Shown piece after piece: positions 5,965-9,767 of a stretch of DNA of 55,987 nt. This stretch comes from an uncultured Methanospirillum sp. (GTDB taxonomy: Archaea > Halobacteriota > Methanomicrobia > Methanomicrobiales > Methanospirillaceae). Numbering within the stretch: position 1 is the stretch's first letter; each line of letters opens with the position of its first letter. Made by a program: the position numbers and the translations under genes. The notes below the pieces were generated by a model. That model did not search any database and was not told the DNA's origin. It saw only the letters and a list, made by a program, of their open reading frames with translations. The DNA lies in assembly GCA_964637135.1 (NCBI GenBank), contig CAZWTX010000006.1, positions 62,001 to 117,987 of the forward strand, read 5' to 3'.

Positions 5965-6225
5965 ATGTCAACAGGGGCAGGCTTCATCGTATATTCACTC
6001 GAATTTTGTCCGAGGTGTGAACTCCTGAAAGAGTATCTCACCTCCCGGAGTATTCCCTTTACCGTGACAGACATGTCTTCGGCCGTGGCATTGACTGAAC
6101 TGAGGGTCAATGGCATTTTCGTACAGGAAGGCCCGGTTCTTCAGAGTGGAAAGAAATTTCTGACTACAAAGGAGCTCTTTTCAGGGGACCGGATTATTGA
6201 GGATGCAATTTCCGGACTCCTGTAG
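5965..6225 (+). CDS. nrdH: Glutaredoxin/NrdH-like redoxin
   Basis: 86-aa thioredoxin fold with CPRC. Its stop directly abuts nrdD. Confidence 0.8.
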   Translation: MSTGAGFIVYSLEFCPRCELLKEYLTSRSIPFTVTDMSSAVALTELRVNGIFVQEGPVLQSGKKFLTTKELFSGDRIIEDAISGLL

Positions 6226-8439
6226 GTGTTTGGATTGAGCAGAGGTTCACGACAGACCACTCTTGACGGGATCGAGATCCCCCAGATGCCCCAGGTCAGA
6301 ACAAGTGACGGGCATATCCTCGAATGGGACCGTGACCGTATCGTCAGGCAGATTATCACGGAAACGAGGCTGGTAGAGACTTTTTATGGGTATGACGGGG
6401 CAGATGAGGCAACTGCCCAGGACATCGCCCGCGGTGTCGAGGAGCGGATCAGGAAGATGGGCCTGAAGACGCTCTCCGGGCCGTTGATCCGTGAGATCAT
6501 GAACATTGTCCTGCTTGAACGGGGTCATGTCCAATGGCGGAACGTCTGTACACGGGTCGGAACACCGGTGTATGATGCCCACCTGATCGATGTCGGCTGT
6601 GGATTTGAAGCGCATGATAATGCCAATCTCCAGGAGAACGCGGAGACATCGCATAAAAAGAAGGCAGACAAGATCAGCAAGGAGCAGTATCTCCTCTCCC
6701 TCCCGCCGCACCTGGCAGACCGGCATCTCTGTGGGGATCTTCATATCCATGATCTCGAGTATTTCGGAAGCAGGCCGTTCTGCCAGGACTGGGATCTCAG
6801 GTATTTCCTGTATTACGGCCTGATGCCTGACGGTAACGGGACAAAGGCATCGGTTGCCGGGCCTGCAAACCGTGCGGAGGTTGCCGTCCTGCATGCAGTC
6901 AAGGCACTCGGGAGTGCCCAGACGAACTTTGCCGGTGGCCAGGGGTACTACAATTTTCTGACATTCCTTGCACCGTACTTCGAAGGGATGCCCTACGGGG
7001 AGATGAAGCAGCTGATGCAGATGTTTGTCTACGAGATGACCCAGATGATGGTGGCACGGGGAGGTCAGCTCGTTTTTTCCTCGGTGCAGCTCTCCCCTGG
7101 TGTCCCCCGGCTCTGGCGCGATAAACCCTGTGTGTTCAAGGGGAGGGTCTGGGACGGGAAAAACGGGATCCCTCTCAAGACATACGGTGAATTTGAGAAG
7201 GAAGTGCGTCTTCTTTTCAAGGCCCTGATAGAGGTGATGCTTGAGGGGGATTACTGGGGAAAACCGTTCAACTTTCCCAAACCGGAGATCAGCATCGAGC
7301 CGGACTTCATCAGCGAAGACGAAAAATTCAATGCAGATAATCCCGATCTCCCAACCTACGAAGATCTCTACCTGATGACATTCGAACTGGCATCCAAGTT
7401 CGGCACTCCCTATTATGACAACCAGCTTCCCCCGTACCGGGGCGCCGGCGAGGGTATCTCCTGTTATCAGTGCTGTGCGTACCAGTTTTCGACAGTGGCA
7501 GAGAAGGACCAGGATTTTGAGAAGAAACTCTTCTTCGAAGATGGGTACCACTTCTCGATGGGGTCATGGGGAGTCGTCACCCTGAACTGTCCCCGTGCCT
7601 CATACAAGGCGGGCGGGGACGATGAACGCCTTTTTGCCGAGTTACGTGCGATGATGGATACAGCGGTCGAAATATTCAAGATAAAACTCCGCTGGATGGA
7701 CCTGATCAAAAAGAACGGCCGGATGCCCTTTGCCATGCAACGGCCTCGTGATCCGGTAACCGGCGAGCGGGGTGCTATCGCAGTTGATTTTGACGGACTT
7801 GTATATACAATCGGGATCGTTGGGCTCAACGAGATGGTTCAGCACTTCACCGGCGCCCAGCTGCATGAGTCTGATGACGCGTTCCGTATGGCGGTCAGGA
7901 CCATGACCGAGATGGAACTGTATGCACGCGAACTTTCTGAGAAGCACAACATGACCCTTGCCCTCGCCCGGACACCTGCAGAGACGACCGGCCAGCGGTT
8001 TGCCGTTGCAGATCTGCTCCACCGCGAGTATCACGACGAAGCGGTCAGGGTGATCAAAGGAAACCTGGAAACTGCCCTTACCCGGCTCGGGGAGACGCGT
8101 GACCTCCCGGTGTACTACACCAACGGTACGCATGTGGCACCGGGGGCAGACATCCCGCTCGCCCGTCGGGCTGAACTGGAACATGTATTCTTCCCGATCG
8201 TGGACGGGGGGAACATCTTTCACATCTGGCTCGGGGAAACACGCCCCGATCCCCGTGGCCTCATGGACATGGCCATGAAACTCTGCAGGAATACTCAGAT
8301 CGGCTACTTTGCTTTTACCCGCGATCTGACGGTATCACTTCACCAGTTTACCGAGTGGCGGAGAACACGAAAGGACGTTCTCACCGGTGAGAAGGGACAC
8401 GCGGATCCTACAACCCGCCAGACCGCCATCCTGGGATGA
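6226..8439 (+). CDS. nrdD: Anaerobic (class III) ribonucleoside-triphosphate reductase catalytic subunit, lacking the C-terminal Zn-ribbon/glycyl-radical domain
   Basis: ATP cone (PQVRTSDG...DRDRI), HLCGDLHIHDLEY, FPKP, YQCC, TPAE, YYTNG, GGNIFH. The start is GTG 6226 or TTG 6235. Confidence 0.93.
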   Translation: MFGLSRGSRQTTLDGIEIPQMPQVRTSDGHILEWDRDRIVRQIITETRLVETFYGYDGADEATAQDIARGVEERIRKMGLKTLSGPLIREIMNIVLLERGHVQWRNVCTRVGTPVYDAHLIDVGCGFEAHDNANLQENAETSHKKKADKISKEQYLLSLPPHLADRHLCGDLHIHDLEYFGSRPFCQDWDLRYFLYYGLMPDGNGTKASVAGPANRAEVAVLHAVKALGSAQTNFAGGQGYYNFLTFLAPYFEGMPYGEMKQLMQMFVYEMTQMMVARGGQLVFSSVQLSPGVPRLWRDKPCVFKGRVWDGKNGIPLKTYGEFEKEVRLLFKALIEVMLEGDYWGKPFNFPKPEISIEPDFISEDEKFNADNPDLPTYEDLYLMTFELASKFGTPYYDNQLPPYRGAGEGISCYQCCAYQFSTVAEKDQDFEKKLFFEDGYHFSMGSWGVVTLNCPRASYKAGGDDERLFAELRAMMDTAVEIFKIKLRWMDLIKKNGRMPFAMQRPRDPVTGERGAIAVDFDGLVYTIGIVGLNEMVQHFTGAQLHESDDAFRMAVRTMTEMELYARELSEKHNMTLALARTPAETTGQRFAVADLLHREYHDEAVRVIKGNLETALTRLGETRDLPVYYTNGTHVAPGADIPLARRAELEHVFFPIVDGGNIFHIWLGETRPDPRGLMDMAMKLCRNTQIGYFAFTRDLTVSLHQFTEWRRTRKDVLTGEKGHADPTTRQTAILG

Positions 8440-8450
8440 TCCTGTCCGGA

Positions 8451-9767
8451 TCAGGACCGGTCTGCCAGGTACCTTGCAAGCCAGTATATGCCGTCCGATG
8501 AGGGATGGACCTCGTAGAACGATTCGAGATCCTGCACCCTGATCCCGGCATTGATCATCCATCCGGCATATGCTGCCGCTGTTGCAGCGACGGGAGATGC
8601 TTCTGCCATGGAACATATTTTCCCGGTATTATCAGTACTGAGTGATGTCACCCCGGTATGGCGTTCAGGAACCGACCAGAAGGTTCCCGGGCCTGCAGGG
8701 CCGGGTATGGATACCCCTTTTCCTGAAAAACCGGGAAGGTGGCACCAGCCGAGGTCATTTTTTAGTTTGATCGCCTGGGGGATGGCGACAGGCATCGGCA
8801 TCGGAACGTGACCGAGGATGATATCCGCTGCAAGACGCCCGTATCTCCGTGCAACCGGGGTGAGAAACCCGTTCCCGGTGACATCTCCGGCGGCATACAC
8901 CCCGGGGACTGATGTCTCAAGGTGGTCTGAAACCCTGATACTCCCGTCTGCATTCTTCTCGATTCCTGCAATAAATCCGGTATCCGGAGTCATACCGGTT
9001 GCAATCAGCACTGCCTCGCAGGGTATCAGTTCCTCCCCGCCTGGGCCGTTAATGGAGACACCTGAAACAGATCCTGTCCTGGTTATCTCCCGGACGGTCG
9101 CCTCTTCGATGATCTTCACCCGGTCAAGGTCCTTTTTTGCCTGTTGGACAAGCGTTTCAGGAATCTGGTGAAGGAGGGTGCTTCTGACGATCATCGTCAC
9201 TGTGGTCCCGAGGGATGCGAAGATATAGGCAAACTCAGCTGCAATGACCCCTCCGCCGATGATGACAAGACGCTTTGGAAGAGTTGCCATGGAGAGGATG
9301 GTATGAGCGGTGTATACCCCGTCCAGTTCCTTTCCGGGAATATCAGGAATGTTCGGTCTTGCTCCGCAGGCAAGAATGAGTTTATCGGCTGGTATCGTCT
9401 CTCCGTTCACCCTGACCGCTCTCCCGTTCACAACCGCTTCACCGGTGATGACCCTGACTCCCGCATCGATCGTTTCCCTGTCGAGGACCCCGGCGATCGT
9501 TGTGATAATGGTCCGAAGTTCCCTGATAAGAACCGGGTAAGAGACCGTGAGGGATCCTGACACAATTCCCATCTCTCTGAACCTGGCAGCCTGGTCAAGG
9601 GTTCGCGCCAGGTCGTTGAGTGCGCAGATAATCATGCAGCCCTGGTGAAGACACTGGCCGCCAAGTCCCTCCACCCTCCGGTCAACCAGGGTGACTTCTT
9701 TTCCAGCCCCGGCAAGCCTCATGGCAGCATATCGTCCGGCAGGTCCACCGCCGACCACAACAATCAT
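8451..9767 (-). CDS. Class I pyridine nucleotide-disulfide oxidoreductase (dihydrolipoamide dehydrogenase-like)
   Basis: GGGPAG FAD motif, GGQCLHQGC redox disulfide, GGGVIAAE NAD motif, YAAGD, and C-terminal VHPS. Confidence 0.85.
   Translation of the reverse strand: MIVVVGGGPAGRYAAMRLAGAGKEVTLVDRRVEGLGGQCLHQGCMIICALNDLARTLDQAARFREMGIVSGSLTVSYPVLIRELRTIITTIAGVLDRETIDAGVRVITGEAVVNGRAVRVNGETIPADKLILACGARPNIPDIPGKELDGVYTAHTILSMATLPKRLVIIGGGVIAAEFAYIFASLGTTVTMIVRSTLLHQIPETLVQQAKKDLDRVKIIEEATVREITRTGSVSGVSINGPGGEELIPCEAVLIATGMTPDTGFIAGIEKNADGSIRVSDHLETSVPGVYAAGDVTGNGFLTPVARRYGRLAADIILGHVPMPMPVAIPQAIKLKNDLGWCHLPGFSGKGVSIPGPAGPGTFWSVPERHTGVTSLSTDNTGKICSMAEASPVAATAAAYAGWMINAGIRVQDLESFYEVHPSSDGIYWLARYLADRS

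Follow-up and report, generated by a model that had tools for sequence, protein, structure and literature searches.

A Class III Ribonucleotide Reductase Split across Two Genes throughout Methanomicrobiales, with a Predicted Glycyl-Radical Subunit

The NrdD Locus

The window analyzed here, a stretch of 55,987 nucleotides from a contig of an uncultured Methanospirillum sp., carries an nrdD gene, which encodes the catalytic chain of a ribonucleotide reductase (RNR) of class III, together with the following features.

5965..6225, + strand: glutaredoxin/NrdH-like gene, 86 aa, with a CPRC motif; abuts nrdD upstream; likely reductant carrier
6226..8439, + strand: 737-aa nrdD core; catalytic barrel of a class III RNR of the NrdD3 type, lacking the glycyl-radical domain
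6292..6534, + strand: N-terminal ATP-cone-like domain, residues 23-103 (Pfam ATP-cone, E 0.00098, under the curated cut-off)
6619..6627, + strand: NxN flap (N132-A-N134), aligned to the P. copri flap; residues 130-131 and 133-135 belong to the interface predicted for the small protein
6781..6783, + strand: Cys186, conserved beta-A cysteine, invariant in 44/44 aligned cores
7468..7479, + strand: finger-loop QCCA motif, residues 415-418 (C416, C417), the NrdD3 signature, invariant in 44/44
7975..7983, + strand: PAE motif, residues 584-586; E586 equals P. copri Glu581 by alignment; residues 584-587 lie in the predicted interface
8323..8355, + strand: strand retained across the break, residues 700-710, with Ser704 instead of the first Zn cysteine; the small protein is predicted to dock here
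8356..8439, + strand: variable tail, residues 711-737, and stop, found where fused enzymes have their Zn ribbon and glycyl loop
8451-9767, - strand: convergent gene for a dihydrolipoyl dehydrogenase-like flavin disulfide oxidoreductase; all matches below cut-offs

The core passes the cut-off of its family (TIGR02487, 454 bits against 326; PF13597, 436.6 bits), and the catalytic residues are all kept, namely N132/N134, C186, QCCA 415-418, N454, and PAE 584-586, so that the initial annotation was right to call the core and its active-site Cys intact. The beta-A role of Cys186 is deduced from its position after the HxHD motif. A QCCR/A finger loop defines NrdD3 (section 2.5 of PMC9669993), and QCCA, without Met, is found here at 415-418. 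As for E586, its P. copri counterpart Glu581 bonds to the Tyr following the radical Gly, according to PMC11226230.

The NrdH-like product has a weak match to GlrX_YruB, under the cut-off, and a homologue adjoins nrdD in 30/30 loci that carry a split core and in 16/20 that carry a fused, one-chain enzyme. The nrdD stop codon is TGA at 8437-8439, 11 nt short of the stop of the convergent oxidoreductase gene, which was rejected as a component of the system because it lies beside nrdD in only 2/30 loci. RNA runs cover only scraps of the 5' part of nrdD. A short run of N at about 810-830 of the window, far from nrdD, appears as X in the translations of open reading frames.

Where the Catalytic Chain Ends

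The Pfam NRDD profile has 562 positions, and core residues 131-703 cover only 1-510 of them; on TIGR02487, with 581 positions, coverage runs from 2 to 529. Ser704 stands where 19/19 aligned fused relatives have Cys, the chain extends for 34 residues onward, and the motif R[IV][TVCS]GY occurs in none of the three forward frames over the 1.2 kb downstream of nrdD. Profile coverage, Ser704, and the motif scan together confirm what had been proposed from the sequence of the window, that this NrdD lacks a Zn ribbon and glycyl loop; the Zn site and loop that end the chain in fused enzymes are absent from the core and carried by a separate gene.

Two details of that proposal need adjustment. The break does fall at the first Zn Cys, but the CxxC...CxxC pattern expected there was too strict, the first half of the Zn site being a true CxxC in only 4/19 of the fused relatives (C707 column). 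Likewise, the chain does stop early after the break, but the residues just past it are not junk: among split cores, L705 is conserved in 25/25, Q707 in 22/25, F708 in 23/25, and E710 in 24/25. As for the assembly, positions 7882-8728, which include the end of nrdD, are covered by an independent run's contig that shows 0 differences, and no indel or joint is listed in four runs.

The Small Protein and the Other RNR Genes of the Genome

A six-frame motif scan of the genome for a stand-alone Zn-ribbon/SRVTGY protein located a 122-aa gene outside the window, the other matches of the scan being chance or unrelated; a search for nrdG also succeeded, above the cut-off.

G000:C21:14401-14769, - strand: small radical-domain gene, 122 aa, Cys-rich, with SRVTGY and Gly97
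G000:C42:3797-4519, - strand: nrdG2, radical-SAM gene (TIGR02495, 140.9 bits against a cut-off of 131.15), the only NrdG2 match of the genome

With its sole match on contig C42, nrdG is indeed absent from the window, as the initial annotation had it. The three genes (core, small gene, and nrdG2) are unlinked, on contigs C6, C21, and C42.

The C-terminal part of the small protein reads CPxCGS...SRVTGY...KQQELKDR and matches positions 503-562 of Pfam NRDD, so that this profile is tiled by the two genes. A third Pfam NRDD match and a PFL-type glycyl-radical domain (PF01228) were both sought in the genome, which is 97.7% complete, and neither was found; tblastn of the core against the genome returned only the core itself. 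The alignment puts Gly97 opposite Gly711, the radical residue in P. copri NrdD, in a chain numbering offset by four from that of PMC11226230. In 53/53 aligned rows of the small protein, R94, T96, G97, and Y98 are invariant, as are ten Cys/His (C31, C34, C43, C46, C55, C62, H64, C73, C76, and C81) and, likewise, C84 and H87. Half of the small protein is made up of an Spt4-like ribbon and additional Cys clusters, for which fused NrdD has no equivalent. Folded alone, the small protein gives a middling model (pLDDT 73, pTM 0.52), with which Foldseek returned nothing at E<=0.001.

Homologues number 374 matches of 67-214 aa, at least 120 of them with source names. Among the matches listed, the sources include Methanospirillum, Methanoregula, Methanofollis, Methanolacinia, and Methanogenium, hence Methanomicrobiales, in agreement with the initial annotation, which placed small stand-alone NrdD C-terminal proteins in this order, and the names given include the erroneous NrdD, oxidoreductase, and Spt4. 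The small gene is single-copy and lies downstream of pyrF; it is near pyrF in 47/49 loci and, in 39/47, at most 300 nt downstream on the same strand. Judged by its neighbors, the locus is one of pyrimidine synthesis, with no evident stress context.

The same genome has an intact class II RNR (nrdJ, 738 aa, NPCGE), and therefore class III need not be essential in it.

Conservation across the Order

Of 121 genomes drawn across Methanomicrobiales, 106 gave a match to the core, 105 to the small gene, and 105 to nrdG, scored at E<=1e-30; all three occur together in 102, none occurs in 14, and one is missing in five. The 14 triple-negative genomes form one genus (g20) and thus count as a single loss event; each of them gives a class I/II barrel match, the only type of RNR that they keep, and a Pfam family search was empty in the 5/5 g20 genomes tested. 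The five discordant genomes are 56, 62, 71, 91, and 93% complete; in the last (G097) the core and nrdG are present and the small gene was not found, and in the 91% complete one (G107) nrdG was not found at E<=1e-30.

When the end points of orthologues were compared, they proved to be at the same place: 49/49 cores inspected, out of 106, stop 23-42 aa past the FAFTRD motif without RxxGY. These 49, which include all six families, comprise the 30 best matches, biased to the family of the present genome, and 19 picked to cover the others; the first Zn Cys is retained in three. Both genes are under purifying selection, with pN of 0.12-0.15 against pS of 0.65-0.80 for the core (24 pairs) and 0.14-0.26 against 0.59-0.95 for the small gene (36 pairs), the two values being given instead of ratios because dS is near saturation. 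The order-wide conserved split of this class III RNR is real, with good genomic support.

Several further observations concern RNR genes of the order. The open frames of many split cores are 1160-2000 aa long, with interruptions close to residues 185-189 and 410-428, next to the catalytic cysteines, and two such inserts in G058 (L138:1678-3096 and L132:2257-3570) match intein/LAGLIDADG models. The closed genome G046 has two truncated-core copies about 14 kb apart (C1:285013-286965 and 300733-302892), and G003 has, besides the split system, another NrdD of the one-chain kind (569-aa frame, RRVSGY), accompanied by an nrdG-like gene of its own (G003:C1:589500-594500). For the class II RNR, many genomes of the order show an open frame of about 550-570 aa, compared with about 740 aa elsewhere, and in the short-frame genomes this enzyme may be split or shortened too.

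Genomes without Another RNR

No class I/II barrel match was obtained in 10/121 genomes, all of which have the core, the small gene, and nrdG. Five of these were searched again with TIGR02504, TIGR02505, and PF00268, by which four were empty and one showed an nrdJ fragment; an NrdJ protein query, run without a positive control, was empty in 5/5. G018, which carries the nrdJ fragment, was rejected as a case without class II, G058 was left out for want of established synteny, and the synteny comparison rests on G071 and G076, which are 98% complete, 20-contig drafts. In both, the pdxT-hppA interval is gap-free, N-free, and devoid of nrdJ; in the same genus, G106 has nrdJ inside this interval and G119 has it next to pdxT. 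No class I or II RNR matched in G071 and G076, whose only NRDD matches are the truncated core and the small gene. Free-living cells require an RNR, and since no other was detected in these two genomes, the split pair likely works there.

Predicted Complex of the Two Chains

The initial annotation had suggested co-folding the two parts. With core residues 20-720, the small protein, and three Zn as input, the co-fold reached the pass mark (ipSAE 0.78; highest value among three controls, 0.00), with runs agreeing in at least 92% of contacts and a partner pLDDT of at least 83. That mark is reached by 116/157 solved pairs and 2/215 mismatched pairs, a calibration that applies only roughly here, given that our own alignments and zinc were used.

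The model has about 200 predicted contacts and a beta-sheet shared between the chains, and in it the small protein occupies the position that the radical domain has in solved NrdDs. The contacts of lowest error join core 701-705 to partner 88-92, a predicted pairing that rebuilds one internal to the fused chain, and core 708-710 to partner 35-37, which belong to the part missing from fused enzymes. The predicted interface also takes in the NxN flap and the PAE loop, both of which touch the radical domain in P. copri NrdD, as described in PMC11226230. The co-fold speaks of compatibility rather than binding, because the halves of a split gene can pass by their likeness to solved structures and by the 19 fused sequences in the core alignment, and the placement may be a memory of solved one-chain NrdDs. 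It is silent on the Gly-Cys distance because C416/C417 lie outside the confident interface residues.

Proposed Mechanism and Alternative Readings

We consider it highly probable that the core and the small protein make up a two-chain class III RNR, in which NrdG2 would load Gly97 of the small chain with the radical, this chain would dock via the retained strand, insert its loop, and start nucleotide reduction at the QCCA loop, and NrdH would serve as reductant. The suggestion made from the window, that a small Zn-ribbon/RxTGY protein supplies the radical in trans, is thus supported by the partner gene, nrdG2, the ends of the orthologues, and the co-fold. All chemical steps are inferred by analogy with one-chain NrdD. 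NrdG2 and SAM would generate the radical on Gly97; strand 88-92 of the small protein would pair with the kept strand 701-705 of the core, and its extra N-terminal Zn ribbon (35-37) would grip the newly conserved core residues 708-710. The Gly97 loop would then reach the inside of the barrel by passing between NxN flap and PAE loop, the route taken in fused NrdD, and there the radical would abstract H from a finger-loop cysteine (C416/C417), and the C186 disulfide would be re-reduced via the adjoining NrdH-like protein, as tabulated for NrdD3.

Of the other readings, the one that survives best has the small protein as a shared, diffusing radical donor that pays brief visits to cores instead of being a bound subunit. 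The core and small genes are not co-transcribed, and the P. copri domain is mobile, being ordered in one monomer only (PMC11226230), both of which would suit a donor of this kind; we nevertheless think it unlikely in view of the roughly 200 predicted contacts, the shared beta-sheet, and the conserved new docking residues on the core.

Considerably less probable is that the two proteins have separate jobs, the core being non-radical or regulatory and the small protein serving another glycyl-radical enzyme or a plain Zn-finger role. The genes are unlinked, and half of the small protein is an Spt4-like ribbon with Cys clusters foreign to fused NrdD, some sources even naming it Spt4. Against this reading, no other glycyl-radical enzyme was found in the genome, the catalytic residues of the core are all kept, the pair is lost jointly with nrdG, genomes exist in which no other RNR was detected, and the two chains co-fold.

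It is more doubtful still that the chains are joined after expression, by a split intein or RNA trans-splicing, into an ordinary mature enzyme: the NrdD of the order does host inteins and has many open frames of 1160-2000 aa, but an intein match is absent from both the core and the small protein, the first 60 residues of the latter are conserved and Cys-rich rather than intein-like, and the tail of the core is variable. Finally, that the gene is a pseudogene or assembly error, its end lost recently while a class II RNR does the work, would fit with the intact nrdJ and with class II in 111/121 genomes, but misassembly and decay are ruled out, as far as sequence can tell, because the independent contig matches across the end and 49/49 orthologues end likewise, and the strong purifying selection on the core and the conserved partner gene point the same way, so that we give this reading virtually no credence.

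Within the two-chain RNR, the small protein is better read, from its gene context, as a regular, obligate radical subunit than as a YfiD-like spare, because it is single-copy, lies behind pyrF, and has no fused NrdD to repair. The replaceable, O2-sensitive part put forward in the initial annotation is a possibility that these results neither support nor refute; exchange after oxygen damage may occur.

Comparison with Known Systems

The closest relatives are the one-chain NrdD3 enzymes of Methanosarcina and its relatives, whose cores are 54-69% identical and which have in common QCCA, an NrdH-like neighbor, and NrdG2; their fused C-termini are up to 79% identical to the last 42 residues of the small protein. 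The present system differs from them in that a gene of its own, unlinked to nrdD, encodes the radical domain, which is preceded by some 70 additional N-terminal residues and has further Cys clusters. For the NrdD3-type enzyme of M. barkeri, the biochemistry is taken from a table and citations in PMC9176816. The solved NrdDs (P. copri, 8p23; T. maritima, 4coi/4u3e) have a homologous barrel and glycyl loop, with an interface that uses the NxN flap and the Glu581 equivalent; the solved chains that match the small-protein profile hold the domain in cis, unlike the split form, and no solved split NrdD is among them.

GrcA/YfiD of E. coli, the spare part of pyruvate formate-lyase, is a stand-alone glycyl-radical domain acting in trans, as proposed here, although the small protein has no homology to PF01228. 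Rescue by YfiD requires a beta-strand retained on the cleaved enzyme (PMC13450708, within section 5.3), which the retained strand 701-705 of the core parallels. The two systems differ in that YfiD repairs a full-length enzyme after oxygen cleavage, whereas this genome has no full-length NrdD, and therefore the small part would be obligatory. According to the same section of this June 2026 review, it is not yet clear whether glycyl-radical enzymes beyond PFL have spare-part proteins at all.

RNRs in pieces have been described for other classes and sources. NrdJa and NrdJb of Pseudomonas aeruginosa form a split class II RNR, with a Cys-rich C-terminal domain on its own gene; NrdJb, however, serves reduction and oligomerization, not radical storage, and no homology was found between the class II and class III Zn sites (PMC5704485 and PMC9669993). 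The splits named in the available text of PMC9669993 are of class II only. The fragmented phage nrdD and nrdA-a/b of Aeh1 are adjacent pieces arising from introns, inteins, or homing endonucleases (PMC3653736), in contrast to the conserved, unlinked radical subunit of the present system. In the literature searched, no account came to light of an NrdD split in this way, its radical domain being separate; most subscription papers and supplements were outside this scope, and an earlier mention is possible.

If the two-chain reading is true, an NrdD with its radical domain on a 14-kDa chain of its own would show that this domain works in trans. The small chain would make substrate recognition by NrdG testable, as a small protein to crystallize with the activase, and the split form would do the same for movement of the domain in and out of the barrel and for ATP-cone regulation through it. 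For annotation, the large split genes appear truncated and the small ones are misnamed; a survey that discards sequences of <400 residues (methods of PMC9531940) would miss the small chain.

Origin of the Split

Outside the order, 20 fetched loci hold fused enzymes, 54-69% identical to the core, which show that fused orthologues exist and not how frequent they are, because these loci were picked for the domain in a long frame; in a phylum search, most matches listed outside the order sit in frames >600 aa. A quick, midpoint-rooted tree of 25 split and 19 fused cores places the split cores, from three of the six families, on one side of a branch with SH-aLRT 100; left out were five split cores (including all four from f5), one fused core, and every core of f4 and f6. 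A single fission would explain this tree most simply, and it probably took place in the order's ancestor, because relatives outside the order are fused.

A full-length target beside the stand-alone part is absent from the present genome and present in genus g59 of another family (f7). Four genomes of g59 combine a 118-aa stand-alone homologue (41-45% identity; L082-L084 and L147:2982-3335, in G184, G170, and G161, and also G239) with an NrdD3 that is fused and another NrdD of about 610-624 aa, and their stand-alone protein is a candidate for a true spare part. We advance tentatively, as a minority chance, the broader proposal that the small protein is an order-wide obligatory radical subunit that could be swapped after oxygen cleavage, sparing the 80-kDa barrel, and that it was born of a stand-alone spare, still found beside fused NrdD in g59, followed by loss of the barrel tip. 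If true, it would give glycyl-radical RNRs their first two-chain member and would extend spare-part systems for the first time beyond pyruvate formate-lyase.

Two more loci of stand-alone homologues deserve mention. The homologue of G161 has a desulfoferrodoxin-family gene about 0.9 kb away. In G191 (L149:2334-2660), a 109-aa homologue, altered at its end, sits immediately upstream of a 799-aa ORF resembling, by eye, a class II RNR, and the element is possibly mobile.
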